From assembly GCA_964552395.1 (NCBI GenBank), contig CAZKGM010000003.1, positions 50,030 through 114,029 of the forward strand: a stretch of 64,000 bases of DNA. The letters run 5' to 3'. Below, in pieces: positions 3,464-54,485 of the stretch. Under the pieces are notes generated by a model. It made no database searches. It was not told the origin of the DNA and was given only the letters and a program-made list of their open reading frames with translations. The DNA is from an uncultured Thermoanaerobaculia bacterium (lineage in GTDB: Bacteria > Acidobacteriota > Thermoanaerobaculia > Thermoanaerobaculales > Sulfomarinibacteraceae). The stretch's first letter is position 1. Each line of letters begins with the position of its first letter. The position numbers and the translations under genes were made by a program.

Positions 3464-6400
3464 CTACTGCGGCGGCACGCCCCGCCCGAGGGTGACGTAG
3501 AACCTGCCGCCAACCGTTGCCGGATCATCCTCGTACCCGAGGGCGTCAAAGTCCATCCGATGTCTCACCTCCGGAAAACGCGCCAGGGCCTCGTCCGGCA
3601 GTGTCGTTCCCCTGGCCGCCCGGTGACACCGCCGGCACTGGACTGCCTCGACGCTGTGGCAGTCGCCACAGCTCAGCGCCCTGTGGTCCGGCACCACCTC
3701 GTGGTGCACCGACGAGTAGCTCACGGTCTGGACGAAGGCATGGCGCCCGGAGTAGGGCAGGCCCATGCGCTCCATGCCGGTGCGGATCGCCGCCTGCCAG
3801 TCGAGGCCGCTCGAGGATCGATCCCAGAGCTCGGCCACGACCAACGTTCGGTTCTCCTCGTCAAACGGCTGGACCGCGGTGTGGCGCTTGAACGGGAAGA
3901 TCCGCGCCCGAGGGTTGCGCCTCTCCCCCACCGGGGCGCTGAGCACGACCGCCTTGGTGGGATCGATCCGATCCCCGGCCAGCGAGAGCGTGTGCGAGCC
4001 GTCGTACCAGAGGTAGACGGGCGTCACGTCCATGCCCCAGACGAGGGTACCGAACCTGGGATCATACGTCTGCATACCGCCGGGACCTCTCTCCACGCTC
4101 CTGTCCTGCCCGGCCGTGGAAAAGTCCTGGGCCAAGAGCGTGGGAGCCGTTCGTGCCAACGAGGGAATGTGGCAGGTCTCGCACGCCACGCTCTTGACGT
4201 GGTCGTCCAGGTGTCGGCTCAGGACCCCGGTCATACCGTGAGGCGAGGCGCCGTGGCACCTCTCACACTCGACCGTTCCTTCCACCGCCGGCACCAGAAG
4301 CGACCTGCCAGAGATCCTGTGGGCGACGGTGGTGTGGCAGTCCTGGCAACGCATGGCGAGAGCCCCCATGTGCACGTCGAGCTCCGCCGGCGGATCGGCC
4401 AGCGCCGGCTCGAGGTCCCCGTGCTTGGCGTTGGGGAAGCCGCCGCTCGAGAAGTGGCAGCCGCCGCAGGTCTGCCTGGACGGGCGCCCCACCGCTCTGG
4501 CGACGACCGCCAAATCTACGGTCGGATCGGGCATCCCGGCCGTGCCGGGGTCCTTCCGGTACAGGCCGGTCGTGTCATGGCACACCAGGCAATCGATGTT
4601 GTCTGCGTCGTTCAGGTCGAAGCCGGCGTCCGCCCAACCATAGCCGATGTGGCAGGCGGCGCACCGGCCCGGCTCCGTGCCGATCCCGAGGAAGTAGTTG
4701 CCGACGACACTGGTGAGGCTGACATCGACCCGGTGCTCGGAGCCAACGAGCGTCGGCGAGCGCCCTTTCCAGCTCCAGTGCGCGGTACCCATGATGTCCT
4801 CCCCGACATCCGCATGACAGGTCAGGCAGGTTTGGGTCACCTGTTGTGGGGCCGGCCGCTCGCCCAGCGCCACCAACGTCGAGTGGTCGGGCGTCCAGGG
4901 GTGGTGGCAAGCTTTGCAGTCGGCTGGGGCGTTGGCCATCCGGGTCTGCTTCTCGTGGCATCCGATGCACTGCCGGTGGTAGGCGCCCTTGAGGCCGATA
5001 CGGGACGGCGCGTCGGCCTCGTTCGGCAGGCCGTGGCAACGGGAGCAGCTCTGCGGCGGGTTGGAGGCCATGTTCTCGTGGCACGAAGCGCACGGCCCGC
5101 CCAGCCGAACGTCGATGGCCGCGTGAAGCGCCTTGATGTCCTCTCCGATGCGATCGTCCGCCGACATCGCGTAGCGGTGATGGCAGACACCGCAATCGCC
5201 ACCAGTGAGCGCGTCGTGGATCCGGTGCGCGAACCCCACGGGCTCGTAGTCGTCGGTCTTCTCATTGAGAATCGGGCTCTCGAGCAGGTAGAAGTTCTTG
5301 TAGGCCAGCGGTCGCTGCGGGTAGGCCGGACCCGGCAAGGCCGCCGCTTCGGCCTGCGTCATCTTGAGGCGATGGATCTCTTGCACGGTCTGCGCCGAGG
5401 CATGGAGCGCCTCCCCGTGGACGAAGCTGTAGAGCGCGACAAAACCGAGCAGGAAGAGAACGCCCACGGAACGGAAGACGAAACCAAGGCGCCGGGAGAT
5501 CGGAACCGGTGGCCCGACCAGCGAGGCGGGCGGCTCGGCGGCCCCCACCCGCTCCACCCACAGGACCGGGAAGAACGTGACGAACAGCCGGTAGAGGAAC
5601 ACGATCGTGCACACAACGAACAGCGTCAGGGCAATCTCGCCGATCGACGGGAAGTAGCGGTGGGTCTCATACGCAGGACGATAGCCCACGAGGAAGACGT
5701 TGATGCGGTTCATCACGACACCGAAGACCACCATCAGCGAGGCCGTGAGCAGCCATCCCGGGGATCTCCGCACGGGCTTCCACAGCAGGATAACGAACGG
5801 CACGATGAGGCCGATGACGACCTCCACCGCAAAGGCAATCGTGGTCCCGGGGTTGCTGACGAAGCTGATGGTTCCCAGCCTACTCAGCAGGTCGGCCGCC
5901 TTGGCCAGGGCATAGATGCCGATAAGGATCGGCACCTTTGTGGCAAGTCTCTCCAGGACGTCCATCTCGGGCTCCAGGCCCAGACTCTTGTGGGCCAGGA
6001 TGGACTCGACAATGAGCATGGGAAACCCAACCATGATGGCGGACAGCAGGAACAGGACCGGCAGGAAGGACGAGTACCAGATCGGGTCCAGCTTGGTCGG
6101 CGCGATCACCATCAGCGTGCCGAGCGAGGACTGGTGCATGCAGGACAGCACCACGCCGGCAACAATGAAGATCGGCAGCACCGCCCGGACAAAGGCCCGA
6201 GCCACCCGCACCGGCTCCTTCAGGCGCTCGAGCCAGGTGACGTCCCGGCTGTGCTCTTCCAGGTAGTCCCTAACGCCGCCCAGAACCGCCGGCGCCATCT
6301 CGATCGTCAACACGAGCAGGTACGCGACCACACAGATGCCCACCTCGAACAGCACCGAGTTACCCTGCCAGAAGAACACCGGCCGCCAGATGTTCCACCA

Positions 6401-6739
6401 GCGGCCAAGGTCGAAGATCAGGGCAACCGCCACGAACAGGTACCCGAGCCAGGCGGTGAGGATGGCCGGACGCAGCAGCCGCTTGAAGGAGTGTTGCCAG
6501 AAGATCTCGATCAGGGCCGCCGCCGTGAACCCGCCCGCCGCCAGCGCGACCCCGCAGGCGACGTCGATCGCGATCCAGATCCCCCACGGGTGCTGGTTGT
6601 CGAGGTTGGTCACGGCACCGAGACCGTTGAAAATCCGTCCGAGGCCGAACGCCAGGCCAACGCCCATGAAGACCATGAGGAGGATCGTCCCCGAGGTCAG
6701 GAACGGGACGCCGGTGCGGGAACGGGGCTCAAGCCTCAT
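3464..6739 (-). CDS. NrfD/HybB-type membrane anchor fused to a 14-CxxCH multiheme cytochrome c (c3-like 5-heme region plus OTR-like region)
   Basis: N-terminal PWGIWIAIDVACGVALAAGGF, FDLGR and HQSSLG (HybB/HmcC family). 14 CxxCH motifs counted. The C-terminal ~470 aa follows the octaheme tetrathionate reductase pattern (HWSW, GYGW, KHGDL, DVHM, PFKRH, DALGY). Confidence 0.88.
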   Translation of the reverse strand: MRLEPRSRTGVPFLTSGTILLMVFMGVGLAFGLGRIFNGLGAVTNLDNQHPWGIWIAIDVACGVALAAGGFTAAALIEIFWQHSFKRLLRPAILTAWLGYLFVAVALIFDLGRWWNIWRPVFFWQGNSVLFEVGICVVAYLLVLTIEMAPAVLGGVRDYLEEHSRDVTWLERLKEPVRVARAFVRAVLPIFIVAGVVLSCMHQSSLGTLMVIAPTKLDPIWYSSFLPVLFLLSAIMVGFPMLIVESILAHKSLGLEPEMDVLERLATKVPILIGIYALAKAADLLSRLGTISFVSNPGTTIAFAVEVVIGLIVPFVILLWKPVRRSPGWLLTASLMVVFGVVMNRINVFLVGYRPAYETHRYFPSIGEIALTLFVVCTIVFLYRLFVTFFPVLWVERVGAAEPPASLVGPPVPISRRLGFVFRSVGVLFLLGFVALYSFVHGEALHASAQTVQEIHRLKMTQAEAAALPGPAYPQRPLAYKNFYLLESPILNEKTDDYEPVGFAHRIHDALTGGDCGVCHHRYAMSADDRIGEDIKALHAAIDVRLGGPCASCHENMASNPPQSCSRCHGLPNEADAPSRIGLKGAYHRQCIGCHEKQTRMANAPADCKACHHPWTPDHSTLVALGERPAPQQVTQTCLTCHADVGEDIMGTAHWSWKGRSPTLVGSEHRVDVSLTSVVGNYFLGIGTEPGRCAACHIGYGWADAGFDLNDADNIDCLVCHDTTGLYRKDPGTAGMPDPTVDLAVVARAVGRPSRQTCGGCHFSSGGFPNAKHGDLEPALADPPAELDVHMGALAMRCQDCHTTVAHRISGRSLLVPAVEGTVECERCHGASPHGMTGVLSRHLDDHVKSVACETCHIPSLARTAPTLLAQDFSTAGQDRSVERGPGGMQTYDPRFGTLVWGMDVTPVYLWYDGSHTLSLAGDRIDPTKAVVLSAPVGERRNPRARIFPFKRHTAVQPFDEENRTLVVAELWDRSSSGLDWQAAIRTGMERMGLPYSGRHAFVQTVSYSSVHHEVVPDHRALSCGDCHSVEAVQCRRCHRAARGTTLPDEALARFPEVRHRMDFDALGYEDDPATVGGRFYVTLGRGVPPQ

Positions 6740-7736
6740 CGGCCTCTCCCTCTCCGGCGCGACCGTCGCTGCGGTCGCCGCCCGCCTCTCGTTCCCCCTC
6801 GGCCTTTCTCTCCTCGCCGATGGCCCGGCGCCAGTTGAACCACATCAGGCCGGCCAACCCCGCGTAGACCGCAACCGGAATAGCCCCGTACTTGAAGATG
6901 CCGTGCTGGATAGCCTCCGTGCGGCTGGGCGGCGGGGCGGTGGGAAGCGACAGCAGGCTGACCTCCTGCGGCGGCCGGCCGGTGAGGTACAACCACGACG
7001 TGCCCCCGACCTCCTCCTCGCCGTAGATGTGCGCCAGGTAGCGGTCCGGGCGCTTCGCGATCCGCTCCTTGGCCAGGAGCAGCAGATCCGCCCGCTTGCC
7101 GAACACCAGCGCCTCCGTGGGGCAGGCCGCCGCGCAGGCGGGGTTCGCGCCGGTTCCGGCCGCAACATCCGTGCACATCTCGCACTTGCGGACCCGCGGC
7201 TTCACCGGATCCCGGTACTCGTACGCGAGAATCTCGAACGGGCACGCCACCATGCAGTAGCGGCAGCCGATGCAGATCGTCGGGTTGTACACGACCGCGC
7301 CGTCCGCGGCCTTGACCATCGCGCCGACGATGCAGGCGGAGACGCACGACGGCCATAGGCAGTGCATGCACTGGAGCTTGGCGTAGGTCTGGCTCTGGTC
7401 ACTCTGGTCACGGGAGGGGGCGCCAGGAAACTGGTTCACGACCGTGAAGGCGTCCGCTGCGGGGCGCCTGAAGGTCCGGAACACGCCGCGGTCGGTGAAC
7501 GGCCGCTCCGGCCGCCGCAGTTTGTTGCGCCGGTTGCAGGCCTCCTCGCACTTGCGGCAGCCAATGCAGAGCGTGGTGTCCACCAACACGCCGACGACGT
7601 CCGGAGAGCTCTTTCGTCGGCTCGCCTTCCCGGTCTGGGCAACTGCAGGGAGAGCCGCAGCGGTCGCCGGGACCGCCCACCCTATCTCCAGCAACGCCCG
7701 TCTGCTCAGCTTCACGACGACCTCCCCGCCGGTCAT
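6729..7736 (-). CDS. HybA/HmcB-like 4x[4Fe-4S] protein with Tat signal
   Basis: SRRALL twin-arginine motif; CIGCRKCEEAC, CMHCLWPSCVSAC, CIGCRYCMVACP and KCEMC; C-terminal TM helix. Confidence 0.9.
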   Translation of the reverse strand: MTGGEVVVKLSRRALLEIGWAVPATAAALPAVAQTGKASRRKSSPDVVGVLVDTTLCIGCRKCEEACNRRNKLRRPERPFTDRGVFRTFRRPAADAFTVVNQFPGAPSRDQSDQSQTYAKLQCMHCLWPSCVSACIVGAMVKAADGAVVYNPTICIGCRYCMVACPFEILAYEYRDPVKPRVRKCEMCTDVAAGTGANPACAAACPTEALVFGKRADLLLLAKERIAKRPDRYLAHIYGEEEVGGTSWLYLTGRPPQEVSLLSLPTAPPPSRTEAIQHGIFKYGAIPVAVYAGLAGLMWFNWRRAIGEERKAEGEREAGGDRSDGRAGEGEADEA

Positions 7737-9092: not shown

Positions 9093-12000
9093 TCAGTTGC
9101 CGCCGATCCTCAGAATCTCGCCGAAGTCTCCGACGGCCCAGCACAGGTTGGAGCGCACGCAGTGCAACCCGAGAAGGCTCAGTCCCGTGGGGCTCGCCAC
9201 CGACGACCAGCTGGCGCCGCCATCCCCGGAGTGCACGATCGTGCCGCGATCTCCAACCGCCCAGCCGTTCGCCGCGGTAGGAAACGCGACATCGTGGAGA
9301 TCGCCGCTGACTCCCACGCCCCTGGCCGTCCAGGTCGTCCCGCCGTCCAGGGTGTGGAAGAACCCGCCTTCGCCGGCAATCCAGCCCTCCGAAGAGCTCG
9401 TGAAGACGACGTGCATCAGGTGCCAGGGGCAGCTGGTGTACCCACAGTCGAGCTCCTGTTGTGCCCAGCTCTTGCCGCCGTCTGCAGTGTGGATGATTGT
9501 GCCGAGCCCTCCGACCGCCCAGCCGTTCTGACTGTCCGCAAAGTGAAGCCCACCCTGAACGATGGCGAAGCCAATGGCCAGGCCGCCCTCGATTCCGGTA
9601 GGCACCCAGGCCCAGTGCGCACCCCCGTCCTCGGTCTTTGCGAGGAAGAGAGATTGTCCTCCGGAGGTGTCATCGTAATGACCCTTATCCAACGCCCAGC
9701 CGTGCTGGCCGTCGAGGAACTGGACGTCGAACAGCTCCGGTGCCAGGCCGTCCGCCAGCTCCTGACCTTGCTCCTCCCAGTGGAGGCCGCCGTCGGAGGT
9801 GTGGAGGATCGCCCCGTGAGATTTCCAGCCGGCCTCGTAGAACGTCTCCGAGCTTCCGGTCGCCCATCCGTGGAGAGCATCCACGAAGCTCACGGCGTCG
9901 AGCCGGAAGTAGCTGAACAGGTTGTCCATCGGCGGCGCCTTCTCGTACTGTTCCGCCCAGCTCGCACCGCCGTCCGAGGTGTGAAGGATGACCTGACCCC
10001 AGAGCTCCGGGGCGAAAGTCCTCCGTCCCACCGCCCAGCCGTTGTATTGATCGATGAAGAAGACGTCCTCGAGTTTGTAGTGAGCGCTGATGTACGCCTG
10101 CTTGAAGAGGTTGTCGCCGTGCGGCCAGCCATACTCCCCCCACGCGTCCTCGGATCGCACAACATAGTCATGATCTCCCACCGCGATGGCGCGGTCGCCG
10201 GTGAGGGCGAGGCCGAACAGGCCCTCGCTGTCGTGGCGCTCTTGAATGACCTTCTCCCAGGTTGTGCCACCGTCTACTGTACGGAACACCGGCGGGCCCC
10301 ATGCCGCGATGTAGTTGGCGCCCATGATGTAGGCTCGGTTGGCATCGATCGCCTCGACATCCCACAGCAGGTCGAAGAAGTGGCCAGGATCCTGCCGCTC
10401 CCAGGTCGATCCTCCGTCCGTGGTGTGGAAAGTCGCGCCGCCGATTTCTCCCGAGCTGGTCACGAATCCCACCGCCCAACCGTGTTCGACGTCGACGAAG
10501 TCAACATCCGTCAACGAGACCGGGAGATCCGGGGCATACTGCTCGGCCCACGTCGCGCCGCCGTCGGTCGTGTGGTAGACAACCATCCGGTGCTCCGGCC
10601 AGGGGTCGTCACCGACATACCGGGCCCCGACCGCCCAACCGGTCTTGGTGTCGATGAACTGCACTCCGTGCAGGATGCTGGCGCCGGCGGGCAGGCTCTG
10701 CTCGTTCCATGTCTGCCCCCCGTCGTCGGTGTGCCAGACGCTCGCCTCCCAGTTGTCCTCATCACCTACGAAGTCCCAGTGCGTCGGTCGAACGGCTGTG
10801 ATCCACCCATGCTCGTCATCGGGAAACGAGACGGCCCGCAGGCCATCTGTCGTGGCGATGGTCTGACGGGTCCAGGAGCCACCACCGTTCGAGGTGTGCA
10901 GGATGAGCCCACCCCCACCCACTGCCCAGCCGTTGTTCTGTCCGACGAAGACCACTGCGTTGAGGCCGGCAGTCTGGCCGACGGCGTGTTCACTCCAGCT
11001 CGCGCCGCCGTCATCGGTCTTGAGAAGCGTCGTCACGTACTGCTTCTCCGCCGGATCCCAGTGTGCCTCACCCACCGCCCAACCCGTAGTCGAGCTCAGC
11101 ATGTCCACGTCGCGCAGGTAGTACGAAACCTCCTCGAACTGCCTGGTCACCGTGAGCGCTCCAGCCGGCTGCAGCTCCGGCATGAAGACCGGATCTCCGG
11201 TCCGATTGTCGATGACCGAGGCGTAGGCGAAGAAGGCCCCCGCCGATGTGTTGGTGGTGAGCACGGCGTAGCCGTCCTCAACGGCGGCCGAGGTCACCGT
11301 ACGGAAGACCCGATCGAGCTGCCGGAACTCCAGCGGCCGCAAGGCCGTACGGCTGGAGGGAACTCTCCCCAGCAGGGCCCCTGAGCCGTCGTACAGATCG
11401 ACGGCAATCTGCAGTGGCGCCGCGGTGGCGTTGACGATGCCGATGTTGGTCCGGAAGCCGGTGCTCGACGCGGTGCTTTCCCGCAGCTGGATCAGGCGCA
11501 CCGCCACGCCGGCCGGGATCGCCGCCGCTGTGGCTCGGCCCGGCACGAGCTGACCATAGGTGCCGTCCGCGGTTTCGTTGTAGGTCCGACTGCTCAGCTG
11601 AAGAGGACAGCCCGACGGGGTCACCCTGAGAGCGGCTGCGCCGGAGAACGCGAACATCGACGCCAACACGTCTTTGTAGCGGACGGCCAGTCCGGGGTCG
11701 AGCTGGAAGCTCCTGGAATCCGGCAACGAGTTGTCCTGGTCCCGAGCGAGCAGCTCGATCGTGTAGGCGCACTGGGCGGGCCCAGGGTTGAGGAGCTCGA
11801 GATCCGTCCGCCAGCTCGTGCCGCCGGCACCAGTGACGTGTGCCGCGGCCGGAATCACCAGGCTGCCACCCGCAGGCGTTCGCAGGGCGGGCAGGAAAAC
11901 CGGATCGCCGGTGCGATTATCGATCACCGAGGCGTAGGCAAGAAAACGCTCCGACCCTCCCGTGAACTGTGCCTCCACCACGGCGTAGCCATCGGAAACC

Positions 12001-12761
12001 TCCTGAGAAGTCACCCTCCGGAAAATCTTGTCGAGCTGCTCGAACTCGTAGGGATCGAGCCAGGTGGTCACGGTCCCCAGCTCGGTGCCGCCCGAGTCAA
12101 ACAGCCGCACCTTCATGAGGAGGGTCCCTTCGCTCAGATTCAGCAGGCCGATATTGGTCCGGAAGCCTTGTGTTTCCGAGGTGCTTTGCGAGAGCTGGAT
12201 CAGATATGCCGGATCTTGACGCGTGAACGCCTCACTCTCGGCAAAGGCCGGCACGAGCTGGCCGTAGGTCCCCTGCGGCTGGTCGTTGAAGGTCCTGCTG
12301 GTCACCAGCGGATCGCCGCCACTCGTGGTCAGCCGGAGGGCTGCCGCCCCGGAGAAGGAGAACAGGCTCTGAAGGACGTCATCATAGCGCGCACTCCTCC
12401 CCGCACCCACGCTGATCGTCGTACTCCTTGGGCTCGAGTTGTCATGATCGCGTTCAAGCAGTGCAACCGTGATGGAGACATCACTGACGCCCGGGTTGTG
12501 GAGTTCAAGGTCGGTGCGCCAGTTCGTGCCGACCGCTCCCGAAAGGTGGGCGCTGGCCGGTATATAGAGCGTGCTCCCTGCTGCCAGGCGCACCGCCGCG
12601 GCGGAAGCCGCTGTTTGCCCTTGGCTCCCATCCGGACGAATACGCTGAGTCGTTGGATCGAACCCGTAGGCCTTCGTTGCAGCGAATGCCTGGACCACCG
12701 CCAGCATCAGCAGCAGCGCCACCTCGACCACACTCAAGCACGATCGGCAAAGATGAGCCAT
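9093..12761 (-). CDS. Large secreted protein: two tandem YASVIDNRTGDP domains plus YCF48/BNR-like beta-propeller repeats
   Basis: Signal peptide (VQAFA). Two ~240 aa repeats run from WRTDLEL to YASVIDNRTGDPVF. Many [T/S]xDGGxxW / GWAVG blades follow. Confidence 0.85.
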   Translation of the reverse strand: MAHLCRSCLSVVEVALLLMLAVVQAFAATKAYGFDPTTQRIRPDGSQGQTAASAAAVRLAAGSTLYIPASAHLSGAVGTNWRTDLELHNPGVSDVSITVALLERDHDNSSPRSTTISVGAGRSARYDDVLQSLFSFSGAAALRLTTSGGDPLVTSRTFNDQPQGTYGQLVPAFAESEAFTRQDPAYLIQLSQSTSETQGFRTNIGLLNLSEGTLLMKVRLFDSGGTELGTVTTWLDPYEFEQLDKIFRRVTSQEVSDGYAVVEAQFTGGSERFLAYASVIDNRTGDPVFLPALRTPAGGSLVIPAAAHVTGAGGTSWRTDLELLNPGPAQCAYTIELLARDQDNSLPDSRSFQLDPGLAVRYKDVLASMFAFSGAAALRVTPSGCPLQLSSRTYNETADGTYGQLVPGRATAAAIPAGVAVRLIQLRESTASSTGFRTNIGIVNATAAPLQIAVDLYDGSGALLGRVPSSRTALRPLEFRQLDRVFRTVTSAAVEDGYAVLTTNTSAGAFFAYASVIDNRTGDPVFMPELQPAGALTVTRQFEEVSYYLRDVDMLSSTTGWAVGEAHWDPAEKQYVTTLLKTDDGGASWSEHAVGQTAGLNAVVFVGQNNGWAVGGGGLILHTSNGGGSWTRQTIATTDGLRAVSFPDDEHGWITAVRPTHWDFVGDEDNWEASVWHTDDGGQTWNEQSLPAGASILHGVQFIDTKTGWAVGARYVGDDPWPEHRMVVYHTTDGGATWAEQYAPDLPVSLTDVDFVDVEHGWAVGFVTSSGEIGGATFHTTDGGSTWERQDPGHFFDLLWDVEAIDANRAYIMGANYIAAWGPPVFRTVDGGTTWEKVIQERHDSEGLFGLALTGDRAIAVGDHDYVVRSEDAWGEYGWPHGDNLFKQAYISAHYKLEDVFFIDQYNGWAVGRRTFAPELWGQVILHTSDGGASWAEQYEKAPPMDNLFSYFRLDAVSFVDALHGWATGSSETFYEAGWKSHGAILHTSDGGLHWEEQGQELADGLAPELFDVQFLDGQHGWALDKGHYDDTSGGQSLFLAKTEDGGAHWAWVPTGIEGGLAIGFAIVQGGLHFADSQNGWAVGGLGTIIHTADGGKSWAQQELDCGYTSCPWHLMHVVFTSSSEGWIAGEGGFFHTLDGGTTWTARGVGVSGDLHDVAFPTAANGWAVGDRGTIVHSGDGGASWSSVASPTGLSLLGLHCVRSNLCWAVGDFGEILRIGGN

Positions 12762-12941: not shown

Positions 12942-15383
12942 TCAGTCTCCGGAACCGTTCAGGCGCGCCATGAGCTCTGCAATACAACCGCAGACCACGC
13001 CTTCCGTGGGACGACCCTCCGGGTTCTTGGCCATCATGCTGAGGATCAGCTGATCGAGCTCGGGACCGATCTCCGGCCGGTAGCGGATCGGCGCCACCGG
13101 CTCGACGTCGAGGATCTGCTTGATCACCTCTACCGGCGTATTGCCGGGGAACGCTTGCCGCCTGGTGAGGAGCTCGTAGCCGATGACGCCGAGGGCGTAC
13201 AGGTCGCTGGCGGGAGAAGACCTCTGCTCGGTGATCAGCTCCGGTGCGAGGTAGCCGATCGTGCCCACCAGCATCCCGGTCTGCGTGAGCCGCGTCAGCG
13301 ACTGCGTGCGGGCGAGCCCGAAGTCGAGGAGCTTGACAAAGCGCACGTCACCATCCCGCTGGACCAGAAACACGTTTTCCGGCTTGAGGTCGCGGTGGAG
13401 GATCCCCTTGTCGTGCAGGCGCGAGACGGTATCGATGAGCTGGCCCAAGATGTACAGCGCATCGGCCACCGGGACCAACCGCGGCTCGGAAATGAGCTCG
13501 GCAAGCGACCGCCCGTCGAGGAGCTCCATCGCCATGAACAGGCGGCCGTCGTGCTCTCCTCTTTCGTGAACCCGGACGACATGTGGGTCATCAAGCTGGT
13601 CGATGACGGCAGCCTCGTGGAGGAACCGTCGGCGCACGGTTTCGTCTGCAGCCAGCTCATCCCGAATCACCTTGAGCGCGAACCGGCGCGAGCCATCTGC
13701 GACATCCTGGGCAAGGTAGACGACCCCCATGCCACCGCTGGCGATGCGGTCTAGGATCCGGTAGTGCCCGATGTGGCTGCTCCGCCTCCAGAAACCGAGA
13801 AGTGAACGGTACCTGTAGCCCAACCAGCCCAAGACCAGGAGCGCCACGCCGAGCCCGGCGAACATGAGGTTGGCGCGCAGCCTGGCGCGGCTCGACAGCA
13901 GGCGCTCGAGCTCGTTCTCTTTGGCCAAGAGATCGATCTCCCGCTGCTTCTTCTCGGCCTGGAACCGAGCCTCGAGCTCTTGCACGCGACGGTTGGAGCG
14001 CTCGTTGAGCTTGGTCTCGCGGGCCGTTGCGGCCTTCTTGTACGCCCTGAGCGCTCCACGGTAGTCACCGAGGCCCACTCGGATTCGAGACAGAATGCCG
14101 CCAGCCTCGCTGAGTCGGTCCGGGTCGGTGATCTCCTCCGCGAGGCGAACGGCGCGCTCGAGGTAGGGCAGCGCCTCTCGACTCCTGCCCATCCCGTCGA
14201 GCGTCTCGCCAATGTTCTGCGAGGCGCGGGCGATTCCGTCCTTAACGGCCAAGCGCTCCCACACGGTCAGCGCCTGCCGGTGAAAGGAGAGCGCGGTGGC
14301 GAGCTGACCCCGGTTCCGGTTGACGACTCCGAGGTTGTCCAGAGCAGCCGCAATGTCCCACTGGCTCGCTTGCTCCCTGGCCAAGGCGAGCGCCGCGCGG
14401 TACTCCGCCTCTGCCTCGGAATACCGTTTCTGGAGCTGGTAGATATTGCCGATGTTGCCGTGGGCACCGCCCACCCCCGAGCCGTTGCCGATTCTCTGGT
14501 AGAGCTCCATCGCGCGCCGAAAGTACTTCAGTGCATGGTCGAGCTGCCCCATATCCTGGAAGATGTTGCCGATGTTGGCCGAAGAGGCAGCAACACCCAG
14601 GTCATTGCCGGCCGCCTCGTCCATCTTGAGTGAGGCCAGCAGCTTCTCGAGCGCCCCATCGTAGTCGCCCATCTGGTACAGAGCGATCCCGATGTTGTTC
14701 AAGGCCTTGGAAACCCCGCGCTGATTCCCGAGCTTGGTCTCAATCTCGAGCTCTTCGGAGTGGATCTCGTACGCCTTGGCAAAGTCGCCGCGGTCGTAAT
14801 GAACGTTGGCGAGATTGCCGAGGGTTCGGGCGACGCCCTTCGAGTTTCCCAGCTCCCGGTCGATGGCGAGGCTGCGCTCGTAGAGCTTGAGGGCTTGGTC
14901 GTAGTCGCCCATCATGCGGTGGCAGACGCCCATCACGTTGAGTGAGCTCGCCATCCCCTTGCGGTTGCCGGTCCCCTCGTACAGGGCCAGCGCCCGGGTC
15001 GCGTGCTCAAGCGAAACTTGATGGTTGCCGCCGACGCTCTCTGAGACCGCCAGGTTGCGTTCCGCCGCAGCCTCACCCAGACGATCTTCGAGCTTGCGTG
15101 CGAGCGCGAGCGCCTCGAGGCCGTAGCGTCGACCGGTCTCTACCGATGCGAAGCTGGTCCGGTACGCAAGCTCGTTGAGGATCCCAAGCCGCTCGGCGCC
15201 CGCAGCCTTCGCCAGGCGACTTTCGAGCTCGGCCACCGACGGTTCATCGGCGGCGACCCCCGGTGCCGCTATGCAGAAGGTCATTACCAGCGCGATCAAG
15301 GCCGCTCGTGAGAGTGCCCGTGTCGATACCACCCGCAAGCGAGATCGACACGCTGATGACGACGTTCTCGCAGTATCCCGCAT
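12942..15383 (-). CDS. Membrane Ser/Thr protein kinase with extracytoplasmic TPR domain
   Basis: Signal-like N-terminus, multiple TPR helices, one TM, then GGMGVVY, ALK, HRDLKPEN, DFG and GTIGYLAPE. Start is uncertain. Confidence 0.9.
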   Translation of the reverse strand: MRDTARTSSSACRSRLRVVSTRALSRAALIALVMTFCIAAPGVAADEPSVAELESRLAKAAGAERLGILNELAYRTSFASVETGRRYGLEALALARKLEDRLGEAAAERNLAVSESVGGNHQVSLEHATRALALYEGTGNRKGMASSLNVMGVCHRMMGDYDQALKLYERSLAIDRELGNSKGVARTLGNLANVHYDRGDFAKAYEIHSEELEIETKLGNQRGVSKALNNIGIALYQMGDYDGALEKLLASLKMDEAAGNDLGVAASSANIGNIFQDMGQLDHALKYFRRAMELYQRIGNGSGVGGAHGNIGNIYQLQKRYSEAEAEYRAALALAREQASQWDIAAALDNLGVVNRNRGQLATALSFHRQALTVWERLAVKDGIARASQNIGETLDGMGRSREALPYLERAVRLAEEITDPDRLSEAGGILSRIRVGLGDYRGALRAYKKAATARETKLNERSNRRVQELEARFQAEKKQREIDLLAKENELERLLSSRARLRANLMFAGLGVALLVLGWLGYRYRSLLGFWRRSSHIGHYRILDRIASGGMGVVYLAQDVADGSRRFALKVIRDELAADETVRRRFLHEAAVIDQLDDPHVVRVHERGEHDGRLFMAMELLDGRSLAELISEPRLVPVADALYILGQLIDTVSRLHDKGILHRDLKPENVFLVQRDGDVRFVKLLDFGLARTQSLTRLTQTGMLVGTIGYLAPELITEQRSSPASDLYALGVIGYELLTRRQAFPGNTPVEVIKQILDVEPVAPIRYRPEIGPELDQLILSMMAKNPEGRPTEGVVCGCIAELMARLNGSGD

Positions 15384-15509: not shown

Positions 15510-16931
15510 CTACCACCGCCCCTTTGCCGGGCGCACGCCGTACTTGTGGAGGGCGGCAACGAAGCGCGGGTACTCGCCCGGCTCGATGTTGAGGGCGGCC
15601 GCGAGCTGCTTCAGGCTGCTCCCGTTGCGGGCGTGATGGCGTTCCAGAAACAGGCGCAGCTGGCGCCGGTTGAGCTCACGATCCAGGAAGGCCCGCCACG
15701 CCGTGTCCCAGAAGCTGGCGCCCGACCCGATAGCGGCCTCCAGCTCGGACAGTACGGCCTCCGCATCCACCACTTCCACGGCTCCACGACCGATCACGGT
15801 TTCCAGCTCCCGCCCAATCTCCGAACCCTCGAGCTGGATTCCGGCGCGCTTGAGCACCTGGATCAGCTCGCGGACATTGCCCGGCCAGTCGTGGGCGAGG
15901 GCGACCTCCCAGAACCCGCTGCCCGGACGCTTCCCCCGCAAGAGGTCAAGGTGCTGCTCGACTAGGGCCTTAATGTCCTCGGGTCGTCCGCGCAGGGGAG
16001 GAATCGTGATTGGCAGCACGCCCAGCCGATAGTACAGGTCCGCCCGCAGACCGGCAGCCTCGGGTCCGGCATCGAGCGCGCGGTTGCTGGCTGCGAGGAT
16101 CCGCACATCTGCCGTCTGCTCGCGCGCCTCACCCACCCTCCGGTAGCGACGGCTGTCCACGAGCTCCAGCAGCTTGGCCTGGAACTGGCGCGGGACCTCG
16201 CTGACCTCGTCCAGCAGCAGGCTCCCGCCCTCCGCCTCCGCCACCAGACCATCCCGACCACGATCGGCACCTGTGAACGCCCCCCGGACATGTCCGAACA
16301 TCTCCCTCTCGAATAGGGTTTCCGGGATCGATGGCACGTGCACGGACACGAGACGGCCACGGCGGCCAGAGTGGCGGTGGATCAGCCCTGCAAGGTAGGT
16401 CTTGCCGACGCCGGTTTCGCCGAGCAGCAGCACCGGATCCTCCTCCAGGGCATAGCGCGCGACCAGCTCGCGCACGTGGACCATGGCCTCACTGGTGCCG
16501 GCAATGCCGGCCGGACCGTCACCGGCGCCCGCAATGGTGGCGAGAGTGTCCCCCAGCAGCTCACCGAGGGCACGGATGACTTCTCTATCCGAACGGTCGA
16601 AGGCGTCTTTGGAGCCGCTATCGACGTAAAGAAACAGGTCGCCGCCAATCGGCAGGACAAGCAGGCTCCGAATGAAGAGGGCCTGGGCCGACGCCGGCAG
16701 GGCACGCTCCTCTGCGAGATCGACTACATCCTCTCGCTCGAGGGCGGCGCCGTCCGTCAGGGTGCGACGGATGGCACTGTGCGGAAACCCGGAGCCGGTG
16801 TCGATTGTCTCGCCGCTCACCCTCCTCCCGCAGTGCCAGAGGATCCGGCCGTCCCTGCCGTACACCATCGCGAGCGACACATCCCGCCCCTCGAGCAGAT
16901 GCCACAAGCGGTTCTTGATGGCCTGAATCAT
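15510..16931 (-). CDS. sigma54-dependent transcriptional activator (bEBP) with GAF-like N-terminus
   Basis: Walker A GETGVGKT, GAFTGA, LLLDEV, ADLYYRL, WPGNVREL; C-terminal HTH-like region; no receiver domain. Confidence 0.9.
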   Translation of the reverse strand: MIQAIKNRLWHLLEGRDVSLAMVYGRDGRILWHCGRRVSGETIDTGSGFPHSAIRRTLTDGAALEREDVVDLAEERALPASAQALFIRSLLVLPIGGDLFLYVDSGSKDAFDRSDREVIRALGELLGDTLATIAGAGDGPAGIAGTSEAMVHVRELVARYALEEDPVLLLGETGVGKTYLAGLIHRHSGRRGRLVSVHVPSIPETLFEREMFGHVRGAFTGADRGRDGLVAEAEGGSLLLDEVSEVPRQFQAKLLELVDSRRYRRVGEAREQTADVRILAASNRALDAGPEAAGLRADLYYRLGVLPITIPPLRGRPEDIKALVEQHLDLLRGKRPGSGFWEVALAHDWPGNVRELIQVLKRAGIQLEGSEIGRELETVIGRGAVEVVDAEAVLSELEAAIGSGASFWDTAWRAFLDRELNRRQLRLFLERHHARNGSSLKQLAAALNIEPGEYPRFVAALHKYGVRPAKGRW

Positions 16932-38284: not shown

Positions 38285-39361
38285 CTAGTGCTTCAGCTGG
38301 GTCGACCGCTTGTAGGTCTCCCCGGCATGCCTGAAGTCATCGATGTGGTACTTGGTGAACGGAATCCCGGTGATGTCGAAGAACCGGGGCCAGCCGATGC
38401 GCTCGATCCACTCACCCATCCGCTCATGCTTCTGAGCGTTCTCGGCATACACGTTGACGAGCTTGACCACGGCGTCCACAACCTCCGGCCACCGGGGCGG
38501 GTTGTTGGGGATGAAGGGGATGGCCAGCTTGGAGAACATGGGCTCGTGGCGGGCGTTGGAGACCTTGCCGCCGACCCAGATGGAGATGCCGTCGGCCTCG
38601 GCGTTGTTGATCTGCATCGCCGGGCAGACGGTGTAGCAGTTGCCGCAGTACATGCACTGCGCCTCTTCGACCTCCACCGACTGCTTGCCGTCGATGGTGG
38701 CCGGACGGATGGCGCCGGTCGGGCACGAGGAAACGAGCGTCGGGATCTCACACATCTTCGGCAGGTTCTCGTGATCGATCTTGGGCGCCTTGCGATGGAT
38801 TCCCAGCACCGAGATGTCGGAGCAGTGGACGGCGCCGCACATGTTGAGGCAGCAGGCGAACGCGATCCGCAGCTTCGCCGGCAGGTTCATGTTGACAAAG
38901 TGCGGGTACAGCTCGTCCATGATCGCCTTGACCACGCCGGAGGCGTCGGTCGCTGAGGAGTGGCAGTGAACCCAGCCCTGGGTGTGGACGATCGATGAGA
39001 TCGCGTTGCCGGTGCCGCCGACCGGGAAGCCGAGCTCATGCAGCTCCTCCTTCAAGGCGGCGATCTTCGACTTGTCGGTGAGCAGGAACTCCACGTTGTG
39101 GCGGCTCGTCCAGCGGAGATGCCCGCCACAGTACTTGTCCGCGAGCCCCGCGAATGCTCGAATTGTAACGGTGCTCAGAAGACGTGGGGTACCCGCCCGC
39201 ACCGTGTAGAGCTTGTCACCCGACTCCGCCACATGAACCATCACACCCGGCTCGAGGATCTCGTGGTAGGCCCACGTGCCGTAGTTCTTCTTGATGATTG
39301 GCGGAAGGAACTGCCTGAAGTCCGGGGGACCGATGTCGGTCTTTCTCTCTGCTACAGCCAT
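38285..39361 (-). CDS. dsrB: Dissimilatory sulfite reductase beta subunit
   Basis: [62 protein letters not shown]. Confidence 0.97.
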
Positions 39362-39377
39362 GGATTCCTCCCTTTCC

Positions 39378-40571
39378 TCACTGATCCTCGTCTTCGAGCT
39401 CGTCCTCGAAGAAGATGTAGGGGTTGGTACGCGGATGGGCGACCATCTCGGGCGTCGGCTCGAGACCGATCTCCTCGAGGAAGTTCCCCAGGCCAACGCG
39501 CTGGATAAACTCGCCGACGCGCTCGCGGTTCTTGCCGTACTCGCCCCAGAAGTCCCAGATCGCCTCGGCGAGCTCCTTGAGGTCCTCGTACGGTGGCTTC
39601 ATCTCGAGGAACGGCACGAACACCGCCGACAGCAGAGCGCCGCCGATGATCGGCGCCTTGGCGCCAATCAGGATCGTCGCGCCCCGCTCCTTGCCGGGCC
39701 TCAGCGCCTTCGGCATCACGTTGATGCAGTGCATGCACTTGACGCACTCGGAGTTGTCGATGTCGAGGCTCTTGCCGTCCCACTGGATGCAGTGCGTCGG
39801 GCAGAGCCTGCAGATCTCGTTCCGGATATCGACGCCGTCCGCCGCGTACTTCTGCACCTGCTCCTGGTCGACCTGGATGTCGTCCTTCCAGGTGCCTATG
39901 ATCGACATGTCCGAGCGGGCCACGGAGGCCACGCAGTCGTTCGGGCAACCGGAGAACTTGAACTTGTACTTGTACGGGAACGCCGGCCGGTGCAGCTCGT
40001 CCTGGTAGCTGTGGGTGATGTCGTTGCAGGCATCCAGAGTGTCGTAGCACGCCCACTCGCAGCGGCCGGGGCCGACGCAGCAGCTCGGCGTCCGCACGTC
40101 GGAGCCCGAGCCGCCGAGGTCGAAGCCGTGCGCGGTGAGGTCGGCAAAGCAGGGCTCCAGCGCCTCGGTCTTCGACCCCAGGAAGATGATGTCGCCGGTG
40201 GAGCCGTGCATGTTGGTCAGACCGGAGCCGTGCCGCTCCCAGATATCGCACAACGTACGAAGCACCTCGGAGGTGTAGAACCAGCCGGCGGGCTGGTTGA
40301 CGCGGTAGGTGTGGAACGCCGCAACCTCCGGAAACTCCTCCGGTAGGTCGGAGTACCGGCCGATGACGCCGCCGCCGTAGCCCATGACGCCAACCAGGCC
40401 GCCGTGCTTCCAGTGGCTGATCTTGTCCTCAAACGACCGCTCGAGCTGGCCGAGCGTGTCGCGGGCCATGGGGTTTGTCTCCGCGCTTTTCTTGATCTCC
40501 TTGACGAAGCTCGGCCACGGCCCTTTGTCGAGCTCGTCAAGCAGCGGGGTTGCTCTATTCTTCTCACTCAT
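39378..40571 (-). CDS. dsrA: Dissimilatory sulfite reductase alpha subunit
   Basis: [71 protein letters not shown]. Confidence 0.98.
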
Positions 40572-42690: not shown

Positions 42691-44304
42691 CTAGTGGAAC
42701 TCCCACTCCAGGAAACCCTCGGGGATGTCGCTCATCGCGTTCACGATCAGCTCCACCAGGCCCCCGTACAGGATGCCGCAGCGGTCCCAGGCATCGTAGT
42801 AGGTCAGGAGGTCCCTCATCTGGCCCTTGCAGTTGGAGCACGGCGCGCACACATACTTGTGCGTCTCCGGCTCGATGCAGTCGGCGAACGCCTCCAAGAT
42901 CTGAATGAACTTGACCCGGCCCGCGACCCGGGTTCGCCAGTCCGGGAAGTTGAGAGACTGGCAGACGGCGAAGCCCGACCCGCCGCCACAGCAGAAGTTG
43001 TCGACGCCGTGGGGCTCCATCTCGCGGAAACGGGGCGCGATCTTGGCGAGAATGTTGCGCTGGGGCTGGATGATGCCCATCGAGCGCGTGATGTTGCACG
43101 GGTCGTGCAGGGTGACCGGGAAGTCGTTCCGCGAGGGGTCGAGGGGCAGCCTGCCGCTCAGGACCAGGTCTTCGAGTGTGACCAGGCAGCTCTCGGTGCG
43201 CACCCGCAGCGGGTCCGGGATGAGGCGGTCGGCGGCCGCCATCGTGGCCTTGTGGGCGTGGCCGCACTCACCCATCATGATCTTCTTCACCCCGAGCTTC
43301 TTGGCCACCTCATAGTGCTTGAGCGCAATCCGCGAGAACTGGATGTCATCGTAGAAGAGGCCGTAGTTGACGGAGTCGTACCCCACGAGCTCCGACGACA
43401 GCGTCCATTTGATGCCTGCCGCCTCGAGGATGATCGCGAACGCCTGCAGGTTCTCCGGCCATGACAGGAACTCGCCCGCGTTGTGCAGCACCAGGTAGTC
43501 GGCGCCCTCGACATCGAAGGGGATCTTGATGTCGAGCTTGGTCTTCTCCGTAATATCTTCTTCGGCGAACTCCATGATGTCCATCAGGCCGGCCGGATTG
43601 AGGCCGGTGGAGGAGCCCACCGCCATCTGCTTGACCGTCCCCAGCTCGTGCAGCTCGGGCATGGCGATTCCCAGCTCCTGGCTGAACAGCTTCCTGATCT
43701 CCCGCGTGAGGAGGCCGTTGTCGATCCCGATCGGGCACTGCTGGGCGCAGCGGCGACACAGGGTGCAGCGGTATGACAGCTCGGCGAGCTTGACCAGCGT
43801 TTCCCAGTCGAGCTCGATGTCGTTGCCGCGCAGCTTCGGAAACAGGTTGCCGCCTGGCTTGATGTAGCGGTCGACGATCTTGCGCAGGATCTCGGCGCGG
43901 AACGTCGGACGATACATTTCCATGTGCCCGGACGCCGTGTAGATCGGGCACGCCTCGGCGCAGGTCTGGCACTTGACGCAGTTCTCCATGGACACGAGAA
44001 GCGGCTGCAGGAAGGTCCAGTTGTTCTCCTTGGTCAAGAGCTTGCGCAAGCCGCTGAGGAACCCGGCCACCAGGCGCTCCTTCTCCTCCTCGCTTTTCGG
44101 CACCGGGATCTGGGCGCCGCACACACCATCCGGACCGACCTCGATCCTCGTGCGCTGGTCCTCGGTGATCTCCTTGATCGGCTCATCCACCCAGTCCTCG
44201 TAAGGAGGAGGCAGCGGCAGCAGGCGGGCAGGGTCGACGTCCTCGTTCTCGGCGAGAAAACGGAGCAGGTCTCCCTGCGATGCGATCCTCGGCCTCTCCA
44301 TCAC
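42691..44304 (-). CDS. DsrK/HmcF-like FeS protein with CCG domain
   Basis: CVKCQTCAEACP, CTLCRRCAQQCP, GECGHA, HDPCN, CCGGGSG, CSNC. Confidence 0.88.
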   Translation of the reverse strand: MMERPRIASQGDLLRFLAENEDVDPARLLPLPPPYEDWVDEPIKEITEDQRTRIEVGPDGVCGAQIPVPKSEEEKERLVAGFLSGLRKLLTKENNWTFLQPLLVSMENCVKCQTCAEACPIYTASGHMEMYRPTFRAEILRKIVDRYIKPGGNLFPKLRGNDIELDWETLVKLAELSYRCTLCRRCAQQCPIGIDNGLLTREIRKLFSQELGIAMPELHELGTVKQMAVGSSTGLNPAGLMDIMEFAEEDITEKTKLDIKIPFDVEGADYLVLHNAGEFLSWPENLQAFAIILEAAGIKWTLSSELVGYDSVNYGLFYDDIQFSRIALKHYEVAKKLGVKKIMMGECGHAHKATMAAADRLIPDPLRVRTESCLVTLEDLVLSGRLPLDPSRNDFPVTLHDPCNITRSMGIIQPQRNILAKIAPRFREMEPHGVDNFCCGGGSGFAVCQSLNFPDWRTRVAGRVKFIQILEAFADCIEPETHKYVCAPCSNCKGQMRDLLTYYDAWDRCGILYGGLVELIVNAMSDIPEGFLEWEFH

Positions 44305-45194: not shown

Positions 45195-45240
45195 GAAACC
45201 TCCCCGGCCCGGCACCCGGCCGGACACCGCCGTTCGACCG

Positions 45241-45256
45241 AGCAAGTATCGTGCCG
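45241..45256 (-). promoter_or_regulatory. sigma54 promoter of the dsrM/K-like pair
   Basis: Reverse complement CGGCAC-GATAC-TTGCT. Confidence 0.82.
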
Positions 45257-47463: not shown

Positions 47464-47517
47464 GTCTCTCCTCCTTTGCATTCACGTTCAGACAGCCACT
47501 ACGGCCGGAACATCTAG

Positions 47518-54474: not shown

Positions 54475-54485
54475 CTTCAAACCCC

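Follow-up and report, generated by a model that had tools for sequence, protein, structure and literature searches.

The locus considered here lies in a stretch of 64,000 nucleotides, called the window below, and encodes a 1091-aa membrane protein whose C-terminal part is an octaheme module of the OTR family of tetrathionate reductases. It raises the question of whether a protein that passes as OTR, while the residues around its heme 2 have been replaced, is still a tetrathionate reductase and, if it is not, what it may do instead.

The features of the locus are collected in Table 1. The ORF and the gene of the FeS subunit overlap by 11 nt, and the GC3 of the ORF (0.87) is usual for the genes of the window. 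The loop preceding the eleventh helix is positively charged, which suggests a periplasmic location of the cytochrome part. The c3-like module matches the NCBIfam models of the HmcA C-terminus and of nine-heme cytochromes, as well as the high-molecular-weight cytochrome c in the PDB (1H29/1GWS, E 1e-17). The fourteenth motif is also present in the long (13/14-heme) forms of the family, and His843, which tracks the presence of this motif, is probably the distal ligand of the extra C-terminal heme. Full-length fused homologs of the ORF were found (P0121-P0125; loci L004-L022 and L043), and the FeS gene is located upstream in all related loci reaching that far. A split gene in the L001 contig had suggested that the fusion is specific to the window; this was rejected given the full-length fused homologs, and in L001 itself tblastn revealed one continuous frame running from window aa 288, within the NrfD domain, through the cytochrome to aa 1056. 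The fusion into a HybB/HmcC-type complex is absent from the preliminary description of this DNA; it gives a concrete context to the idea of an electron conduit mentioned there.

Table 1. Features of the locus and their positions in the window
Feature	Position	Strand	Remarks
1091-aa ORF, 14 CXXCH motifs	3464..6739	minus	NrfD-like membrane domain, anchor helix, c3-like module, OTR-like module, extra heme
HybA/HmcB-type periplasmic FeS subunit gene	6729..7736	minus	Tat-like signal SRRALL, four Cys clusters, C-terminal TM anchor
HybB/HmcC-type (NrfD family) quinone-interacting domain	5540..6739	minus	aa 1-400, 10 predicted TM helices
Eleventh TM helix, signal-anchor	5432..5488	minus	aa 418-436, hydropathy peak 2.23
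c3/HmcA-C-terminal-like module, 5 CXXCH	4889..5257	minus	aa 495-617, Pfam Cytochrom_CIII
OTR-like octaheme module	3647..4888	minus	aa 618-1031, TIGR04315 and 1SP3 match
Leu675 codon, at OTR Lys56 (heme-2 axial ligand)	4715..4717	minus	three alignments
Phe683 codon, at OTR Cys64 (active-site Cys, Sec in many Desulfobacterales)	4691..4693	minus	three alignments
Heme-2 attachment motif CAACH, kept	4649..4663	minus	aa 693-697
Gln871-Asp-Phe873, at family-invariant OTR Trp250-Asp-Trp252	4121..4129	minus	alignment
Fourteenth CXXCH motif CRRCH	3623..3637	minus	aa 1035-1039, C-terminal to the OTR module

Conserved neighbours were sought in 14 loci of the Lys-less relatives described below, and the FeS gene alone was common to them; histidine ammonia-lyase, found in three loci, was considered incidental, and hypFCDE is located downstream of the gene in one locus only. 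The 64-kb window contains no multiheme ORF besides the 1091-aa ORF, and an Rfam scan of it gave no matches; a search for RNA-seq runs also came back empty. It also contains dsrAB and dsrMK-like genes; a dsr setting is where Hmc/Nhc/Qrc-type cytochrome:quinone complexes operate.

The OTR-like module scores 433.4 bits against TIGR04315, the cutoff being 375. Its AF2 model (pLDDT 88.3, pTM 0.89) gave a single Foldseek match, 1SP3, which is the OTR of S. oneidensis (SO_4144), with TM-scores of 0.81/0.89; the level of identity between the two is about 35% over 400 aa, and the eight CXXCH motifs align in the same order. Seven non-motif His residues common to the Lys-bearing and Lys-less clades are all kept in the window protein and are presumed to be the distal ligands of seven bis-His hemes. 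The S. oneidensis protein is soluble and periplasmic, whereas the window version is the C-terminal part of a membrane protein. The warning given in the preliminary description that an automatic otr label would mislead is supported by the sequences, since the TIGR04315 cutoff is passed and Lys-less relatives, for example P0011, are already named tetrathionate reductase by NCBI.

The segment that precedes and includes the heme-2 motif is VSLTSVVGNYFLGIGTEPGRCAACH (aa 673-697, window 4649-4723; the span given earlier was 4650-4735). The Shewanella OTR segment given for comparison, GKKNSINNFCVAISSNEPRCTSCH, does correspond to residues 55-78 of PDB 1SP3, and this numbering agrees with the published heme 2 of OTR, composed of C74xxC77H78 and Lys56 (PMC3769277). 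The sequences were aligned with phmmer (pairwise with 1SP3, E 2e-96, 400 aa), MAFFT (122 sequences), and an HMM (239 domains). In all three alignments Leu675 and Phe683 are 8 residues apart, as are Lys56 and Cys64, and the substitutions of Lys by Leu and of Cys by Phe that had been claimed from an ungapped reading are confirmed by every method, the multiple alignment included. In addition, Trp250 and Trp252 are replaced by Gln871 and Phe873, and the usual Lys247 and Lys275 by Leu868 and Phe896. Co-variation suggests that these four residues line the heme-2 pocket; a positive patch near the catalytic heme II has been described for OTR (PMC4484225). Contigs of four independent salt-marsh metagenome runs show 0 differences from window positions 4500-4900 (401 bases) at a depth of 12-28, and such identity indicates that the substitutions are not due to chance or error.

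About 30 relatives, mostly from Acidobacteriota, share one branch with the replacement of Lys by Leu. In the HMM alignment, column 56 is Leu in 29 of the 30 members of the window's clade and Lys in all 141 domains of the Lys-bearing group. There are 79 near-invariant columns, defined as those at least 90% conserved in the 141 Lys-bearing domains, and 74 of them are retained in the Lys-less clade and shared by the window protein with the S. oneidensis OTR. Only three, Lys56, Trp250, and Trp252, are wholly replaced in the clade, and the usually cationic K247 and K275 have become Leu and Phe. The frequencies of the replacing residues are 0.97 for Leu56, about 0.75 for Arg250, and 0.80 for Tyr252. 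Residue 64 may be C, M, F, L, T, or Y, with Cys kept in 23 of the 30 members. Relative to the sisters that keep Cys, polar residues have also been lost from the window protein, through the changes R871Q, Y873F, R916H, and Y959F.

The heme-2 CXXCH motif is kept in 27 of the 29 aligned clade members, the window protein included; L003/P0015 and L008/L043/P0021 stand for at least two separate losses of it, with the remainder of the protein intact. These losses, together with the variability of residue 64, suggest that heme 2 is dispensable for the function under selection. The seven other CXXCH motifs and their presumed distal His are kept across the whole clade, and members with an identity of 45-63% keep the full length and the fusion. 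Judging by these patterns, the loss of Lys is a conserved trait of the clade, and residue 64 and heme 2 were then lost recurrently. As far as sequences can tell, the earlier suggestion that the protein may not be a tetrathionate reductase stands, the loss being clade-wide and centred on the heme-2 site.

Among the Lys-bearing domains aligned at column 64, Cys was found in 133 of 151. In canonical relatives from at least 26 loci or genomes, residue 64 corresponds to an in-frame TGA that has a conserved hairpin downstream and probably encodes selenocysteine. Sec is characteristic of residues that act in redox catalysis (PMC13188914), and the occurrence of either Cys or an in-frame TGA at this place in canonical relatives marks it as redox-catalytic.

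OTR proteins with 13 hemes, with Lys and Cys(Sec), and with HmcB/HmcC-like partners occur in Desulfobacterales, Desulfovibrionaceae, and Myxococcota; Desulfosarcina alkanivorans PL12 has such a locus, as do Desulfatibacillum alkenivorans DSM 16219 and Desulfobacter curvatus DSM 3379. Those included in the NJ tree form the closest outgroup of the Lys-less clade. Like the window, the 13-heme loci have the order FeS gene, NrfD-type part, and c3-like part with OTR and extra heme, and in many of them (L010-L012, L014-L019, L021, P0122, P0125) the set is fused into one ORF. Unlike the window protein, the 13-heme proteins carry Gly-Lys56 and Cys64 or TGA wherever residues 56-64 were aligned or readable, and they keep K247, W250, W252, and K275 wherever those columns were aligned; their N-terminal heme module has 4 hemes, whereas that of the window protein has 5. 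Presumably, the 13-heme proteins are true quinol-linked reductases, and the members of the window's clade are not.

The membrane domain (aa 1-400) matches Pfam NrfD (PF03916) with 75 bits against a cutoff of 25.8 (E 1e-20), and its hydropathy profile has 10 peaks. Among the NCBIfam models, HybB (E 5e-87) and HmcC (E 7e-81) were found, and the scores remain below the cutoffs of both equivalogs (292.8 vs. 450 for HybB NF008133 and 272.4 vs. 550 for HmcC NF045714). The identity with E. coli HybB is 30% (E 1e-46), and pairwise alignment indicated that D58, R89, Y99, D109, S129, E133, E148, and H184 of HybB are all kept; the list of residues that matter for the quinone site or proton path of the E. 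coli protein was taken from PMC8076601. The FeS gene product carries Pfam Fer4_11, aligns with E. coli HybA along its whole length at 32% identity (E 9e-58), and scores 310.8 bits with the NCBIfam HmcB model (cutoff 420, E 8e-93) and 260 bits with HybA (cutoff 263). With such scores, the membrane domain is not an ortholog of HybB or HmcC, and the FeS protein, whose HybA score lies just under the cutoff, is probably not an ortholog of HybA or HmcB. No hydrogenase or hmcDEF-like genes adjoin the gene pair.

In our opinion, the product of the gene pair is probably a multiheme electron conduit that is coupled to quinone, as in Hmc/Nhc, and whose OTR active site has become vestigial, which would make it a counterpart of the archaeal MmcA. 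We infer both the loss of catalysis and the conduit role from the residue patterns and from the company of the cytochrome: the HybB-type domain keeps the key HybB residues, and the fusion and the FeS gene are kept in relatives. Together, the two proteins would form a membrane complex on the plan of the HybA/HybB, HmcB/HmcC, and NhcB/NhcC cores, in which the periplasmic four-cluster FeS protein would pair with the 10-helix NrfD-type subunit, and the latter would exchange electrons, and probably protons, with menaquinone. In place of a separate catalytic partner, the membrane subunit is fused via the eleventh helix to a periplasmic chain of 14 hemes (5 c3-like, 8 OTR-like, and 1 extra). The OTR-like module would have given up the heme-2 site that depends on Lys56 and Cys64 and would now serve as an electron-transfer wire, with heme 2 as a vestigial side-branch heme behind the hydrophobic Leu675, Phe683, Leu868, Phe873, and Phe896. 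Electrons may then move between the quinone pool and periplasmic partners, such as soluble cytochromes or other redox carriers; extracellular acceptors are also conceivable. Neither a partner protein nor an outer-membrane conduit is encoded near the gene pair, which counts against this reading.

There is a precedent for such a transition. MmcA of the Methanosarcina Rnf complex is an OTR-related heptaheme protein without heme 2 and Lys, and its role as a conduit is experimentally supported; the seven hemes left in it are arranged as an uninterrupted chain (10.1101/2023.04.20.537704). Like the window protein, MmcA is derived from OTR, has no Lys ligand, and is attached to a membrane energy-conserving complex, and the clade members P0015/L003, P0021, L008, and L043 share with it the loss of the heme-2 motif. 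However, its partner is Rnf and its heme-2 motif is gone, whereas the window protein has a HybB/HmcC-type partner and retains the heme-2 CXXCH. The window protein falls outside the MmcA family (TIGR04314, 21.7 bits with a cutoff of 250), and no rnf genes were found near the ORF. The loss of Lys in the bacterial clade is independent of that in MmcA. With this precedent, the earlier proposal that the protein could be an electron conduit or act on another substrate is supported as far as sequences go.

The Hmc/Nhc complexes of sulfate reducers and E. coli hydrogenase-2 combine a periplasmic multiheme cytochrome or a catalytic dimer with a four-cluster FeS protein and an NrfD-type subunit with 10 TM helices (PMC8076601). 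The FeS and membrane parts of these systems, including the HybA-HybB core, are homologous to the window pair, and the c3-like module resembles the C-terminus of HmcA. The difference is that the cytochrome of the window is covalently fused to the membrane subunit and is mostly derived from OTR instead of from c3 repeats. The Desulfovibrio Ohc complex was considered as the closest system and dropped, as OhcC is described as a heme-b protein and not of the NrfD type.

The main alternative, possible and yet distinctly less probable than the conduit, is that heme 2 has remained an active site but has acquired another chemistry. With Lys gone, His697 would be the proximal ligand. The pocket would have been remodelled and become more hydrophobic around a five-coordinate heme, or else, in sister proteins, the heme would have His/Cys or His/Met ligation; the substrate would probably be uncharged or a sulfur chain (polysulfide/S0, NO, peroxide) and the complex a quinol:X oxidoreductase. 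The retention of the heme-2 motif in nearly all aligned members agrees with this, as does the conservation of Leu56, Arg250, Tyr252, and Phe275, which suggests selection for a new pocket more than unconstrained decay; both, like the Cys64 of 23 members, argue against the conduit. Moreover, nearly all members with a heme 2 have Cys or Met at position 64, and either could serve as an axial ligand. Other multiheme enzymes, HAO and Lys-less NrfA variants among them, use five-coordinate hemes with a His ligand for catalysis (PMC9250108), and in TsdA and MccSep sulfur compounds are converted at catalytic hemes with a Cys ligand (PMC13510729). However, the repeated outright loss of heme 2 from otherwise conserved proteins speaks against an active site. 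In the window protein, residue 64 is neither Cys nor Met, and the conserved Arg and Tyr of its sisters are gone; so are the cationic residues for anionic substrates.

A related and rather improbable version is that heme 2 has been re-ligated by the motif His and residue 64, which is Cys in most members and Met in one subclade, as in TsdA, DsrJ, and MccSep, with sulfur chemistry or redox sensing as the outcome. With Phe683, the heme of the window protein would be five-coordinate and capped by Leu and Phe like that of cytochrome c'; it might bind NO or CO and gate or regulate the electron flow through the quinone-coupled 14-heme complex of an Acidobacteriota-like bacterium that carries dsrAB.

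It is very unlikely that the protein is an ordinary OTR-type tetrathionate/nitrite reductase in which a repositioned Lys or His ligates heme 2, so that the standard annotation would be essentially right. The model score above the cutoff and the OTR fold speak for it, and there is a 3-residue insertion directly upstream of the Lys/Cys segment, as well as His669, which precedes Leu675 by six residues and is conserved in 90% of the clade. A Lys moved onto heme 2 would have overturned the earlier description. The OTR-like domain has six Lys residues: K729 and K772 are common to all OTRs, K658, K849, and K929 are variable, and K951 corresponds to the near-invariant OTR K330 and is Gln in half of the Lys-less clade; thus, none is both conserved and clade-specific. 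Three clade-enriched His residues were rejected as substitute ligands. His669 is also found in the Lys-bearing P0122, L010, and P0033, and several clade members keeping heme 2 have N, D, or R in its place; His953 and His1012 are unlinked to the presence of heme 2. In addition, Cys64, Trp250, Trp252, K247, and K275 have all been replaced too. The 36-fold induction by tetrathionate of the otr gene of marine Acidobacteriota (Ca. Sulfomarinibacter, PMC8528874) might seem to favour an ordinary reductase. The forward primer published for this gene matches exactly in L104 and L106, and the reverse primer matches only in L106, with one mismatch; the primer-matching contigs encode a different, non-fused OTR with a signal peptide and LGK...NDFC. 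Since this OTR keeps both Lys and Cys, the induction has no bearing on the Lys-less clade and was set aside as counter-evidence.

A decaying gene or assembly artefact without function, which the progressive losses at the former active site and the frameshifts in some related contigs (L001) might suggest, is hardly credible. The reading frame of 1091 codons is uninterrupted, its GC3 is normal, and none of the 14 CXXCH motifs or of the seven shared His is missing. The same sequence recurs in four metagenomes, and diverged members retain length and fusion. As for L001, its frameshifts fall within the NrfD domain and close to the 3' end, and they resemble assembly errors more than a lesion held in common.

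Genome studies of sediments and marshes take "otr" matches as a capacity for tetrathionate respiration, and the otr of marine Acidobacteriota was read in this way (PMC8528874). A clade mostly of Acidobacteriota passes the family threshold without the Lys/Cys active site, so otr calls need a residue check for Gly-Lys, Asn-Asn-x-Cys/Sec, and Trp-Asp-Trp. The HybB-type domain with its fused chain of 14 hemes is a candidate for a compact module that links quinone to cytochrome. Within one family, a graded series can be seen from proteins with Lys and Cys/Sec, which would be catalytic, to Lys-less, then Cys-less, and then heme-2-less ones. This series would be a bacterial parallel to the archaeal transition from OTR to MmcA and may show, as an experiment of nature, how multiheme enzymes turn into wires.

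The octaheme tetrathionate reductase (OTR)-like domain of the window protein has Leu675 at the position of OTR Lys56 and Phe683 at that of Cys64; a phmmer pairwise alignment, a MAFFT alignment of 120 homologs with OTR, and an HMM alignment of 239 OTR domains agree on both sites. The loss of the catalytic Lys and Cys claimed in the preliminary description is thus confirmed by multiple alignment, and the OTR segment given there matches residues 55–78 of the Shewanella oneidensis structure 1SP3 exactly. Heme 2 of OTR is C74xxC77H78 with Lys56 (PMC3769277), and this numbering corresponds to the 1SP3 numbering used in the alignments. In a PDB search, the window protein matched 1SP3 at E 2e-96. The concern that an automatic otr label would mislead was well founded, as the domain exceeds the TIGR04315 cutoff despite the absence of the catalytic Lys and Cys.

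Features of the gene pair, its surroundings and related loci (aa, residues of the window protein; domain matches from Pfam and NCBIfam)
Feature	Position	Strand	Remarks
14-heme cytochrome ORF	3464–6739	minus	1091 codons, 14 CXXCH motifs
NrfD-family membrane domain	aa 1–400		best matches HybB (5e-87), HmcC (7e-81)
c3/HmcA-like module	~aa 495–617		five CXXCH motifs
OTR-family octaheme module	aa 618–1031		TIGR04315 433 bits, cutoff 375
Segment VSLTSVVGNYFLGIGTEPGRCAACH	aa 673–697; 4649–4723		quoted in the preliminary description
Extra CXXCH motif	aa 1035		C-terminal to OTR module
C-terminal tail	aa 1040–1091; 3464–3620	minus	past 14th heme
HybA/HmcB-type FeS gene	6729–7736		upstream of cytochrome gene, 11-nt overlap; four clusters, Tat-like signal, C-terminal anchor
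1222-aa secreted protein	9093–12761	minus	upstream of operon; repeated Ycf48/BNR-type beta-propeller units
813-aa TPR + Ser/Thr kinase protein	12942–15383	minus	upstream of operon
Sigma-54 activator	15510–16931		after beta-propeller and TPR/kinase genes
dsrB (514 bits), dsrA (591 bits), DsrK-like Fer4/CCG, NarI-type DsrM-like, rhodanese	38285–40571, 42691–45302, 46492–47481	minus	dsrB and dsrA hits at equivalog level
NuoF-like flavoprotein, 859-aa NuoG/FdhA-like molybdopterin protein, 'diclust_near_Sec' protein	49441–56612	minus	'diclust_near_Sec' equivalog passed (541.7; cutoff 530)
hypF, hypC, hypD, hypE ([NiFe]-hydrogenase maturation)	L003:2464–7336		directly after heme-2-less homolog P0015
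Loci with in-frame TGA at residue 64	L024:11941–11943 (example)		L023–L026, L028–L031, L033, L034, L038–L042, L044–L046, L048–L050, L057, L061, L062, L071, L081

The Lys/Cys pair is present in 133 of the 191 aligned domains covering the site. Cys64 is the consensus residue of the Lys-bearing group, present in 89% of its 141 near-complete domains (mean pairwise identity 48%). The 30 nearest relatives of the window protein (45–63% identical) have Leu at position 56, once Val, and this Leu lies within a conserved E-H-R-x-D-x-[SG]-L motif. On a simple neighbour-joining tree, the Lys-less proteins form a single branch, whose sister comprises two Lys/Cys-bearing sequences, one of them from a Myxococcota MAG. 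The sister pair and the next groups out likewise have HmcB- and NrfD-type partners, mostly as a single fused ORF; the fusion is therefore older than the loss of Lys. Among species-representative genomes, the MAG records place the Lys-less type in Holophagales, Thermoanaerobaculia, Polarisedimenticolaceae, other Acidobacteriota, and a few oddly labelled bins. The FeS gene is followed by one fused ORF wherever the contig extends far enough, and no other conserved neighbour was found across 14 Lys-less loci. The split gene of locus L001 is only apparent: frameshifts lie inside the NrfD domain and close to the 3' end, and one frame spans the NrfD interior (window aa 288) and the domain junction up to aa 1056.

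Three homologs, P0140 (1429 aa), P0142 (1112 aa), and P0131 (1000 aa), carry two tandem OTR-like domains each. The second copy is without Lys in P0140 and P0142 (VGL and VGS), whereas P0131 keeps it in both; Lys was thus lost more than once in the OTR family. The tail beyond the 14th heme contains the motif R-x-D-F-x-A-L-G-Y-x-G-D-P-x3-G-G-R-F, common to Lys-less and Lys-bearing 13/14-heme homologs in alignments A1 and A2, and may help the FeS or membrane subunits to dock.

Of the 79 columns with 90% or more conservation among Lys-bearing family members, the clade retains 74; only Lys56, Trp250, and Trp252 are fully replaced. Less strictly conserved cationic sites are also altered (K247 to Leu, K275 to Phe), and the interior of the heme-2 motif changes from C-T-S-C-H to C-A-x-C-H. 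Positive charge has been reported for a surface patch of OTR at its catalytic heme II (PMC4484225). Co-variation suggests that W250, W252, K247, and K275 line the heme-2 pocket. The other CXXCH motifs of the module are kept, as are seven non-motif His (OTR H38, H154, H171, H190, H218, H226, and H400), which presumably serve the seven bis-His hemes as distal ligands, so the change centres on the heme-2 site. AF2 predicts the module with confidence (pLDDT 88.3, pTM 0.89), and the only structural match of the model is 1SP3 (TM 0.81/0.89).

Within the clade, residue 64 is mostly Cys, Met in one subclade, Leu, Thr, or Tyr elsewhere, and Phe in the window protein and homolog P0024. At least two lineages, L003/P0015 and L008/L043/P0021, separately lost the heme-2 CXXCH, with the remainder of the protein intact. 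The motif His697 is invariant even in these members and therefore probably has another role. When clade-enriched His were compared with heme-2 presence, no obligatory new sixth ligand emerged: His669, His953, and His1012 are uncoupled from it, and His843 tracks the extra C-terminal heme. Polar residues conserved in the Cys-keeping sisters are also missing from the window protein (R871 to Q, Y873 to F, R916 to H, Y959 to F), which places it among the more degenerate members. The hyp genes next to P0015 are a hint that this lineage has a link to hydrogenase; no such adjacency was seen in the window or the other loci.

Among canonical relatives, at least 26 loci, mostly labelled Desulfobacterales, Desulfobacteraceae, or Desulfovibrionaceae, have an in-frame TGA as the Cys64 codon (GK...NNF*IS...CTSCH). 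Most of them share a 7-bp hairpin, GCAACGA-GGC-TCGTTGC, 16 nt after the TGA; in L061 and L081 the hairpin at this place is a different one. This arrangement probably represents selenocysteine and its SECIS element. Cys/Sec exchange typically marks redox-catalytic residues, which independently supports a catalytic role of residue 64 in the canonical enzymes; with Phe at this site, that chemistry would be gone. In a 2026 selenoproteome review, TIGR04315 is listed only as a GenBank-annotated family (PMC13188914).

The N-terminal domain shows ten hydropathy peaks and, after a basic loop, an eleventh helix, which would place the cytochrome part in the periplasm; ten helices are described for HybB-type NrfD proteins (PMC8076601). 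It is 30% identical to E. coli HybB (E 1e-46). In the pairwise alignment, R89, Y99, E148, and H184, mutation of which impairs hydrogenase-2, and the proposed quinone-site residues D58, D109, S129, and E133 (PMC8076601) are all kept. The FeS protein aligns with HybA over its full length. All HybB/HmcC- and HybA/HmcB-type equivalog scores are under the cutoff, and neither hydrogenase nor hmcDEF genes adjoin the pair in the window.

The source organism is a dsrAB-bearing bacterium, and its sequence is present in many salt-marsh metagenomes; a search for expression data turned up no RNA-seq run. A dsr setting is where cytochrome:quinone complexes of the Hmc/Nhc/Qrc type are known. The 'diclust_near_Sec' family is named for adjoining selenoprotein genes. 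An Acidobacteriota otr was induced 36-fold by tetrathionate (Flieder et al., PMC8528874). It was considered as a counter-example and rejected: the forward primer matches metagenome contigs L104 and L106 exactly, the reverse primer matches L106 with one mismatch, and both contigs encode a non-fused OTR with a signal peptide and LGK...NDFC kept. The induction relates to a Lys/Cys form and is consistent with the residue-based distinction.

The heme-2-site changes across the clade support the earlier suggestion that the protein may not be a tetrathionate reductase and could be a conduit or act on another substrate. We consider the complex to be probably a quinone-coupled multiheme conduit, in which the fused 14-heme chain would take the place of the catalytic partner of a HybA/HybB-like core, the OTR-derived module would conduct electrons as a wire, and heme 2 would be left as a vestige. 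A direct precedent is MmcA of Methanosarcina, an OTR relative that lacks both heme 2 and Lys and was shown to act as a conduit, its seven remaining hemes lying within mutual transfer distance (10.1101/2023.04.20.537704). It is less likely, though worth considering, that heme 2 persists with His ligation (His/Cys or His/Met in the sisters) and has acquired a new chemistry: most members retain the CXXCH motif and the replacement residues are themselves conserved, but the heme was lost repeatedly and the window protein has additional losses of its own. A canonical reductase with a relocated heme-2 ligand is very improbable. The domain has six Lys, and none combines clade specificity with conservation (K729 and K772 are common to all OTRs, K951 corresponds to the near-invariant OTR K330, the other three vary), so no repositioned Lys was found. 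A dead gene is scarcely credible: the ORF is intact, the cofactor sites are conserved, and a 401-base stretch is identical in four salt-marsh metagenome assemblies (depth 12–28), which shows the DNA to be real.

Judging by these sequences, the bacterial NrfD-fused Lys-less OTR clade is recognised as a variant, and the finding bears mainly on annotation practice and on enzymes evolving into electron wires.
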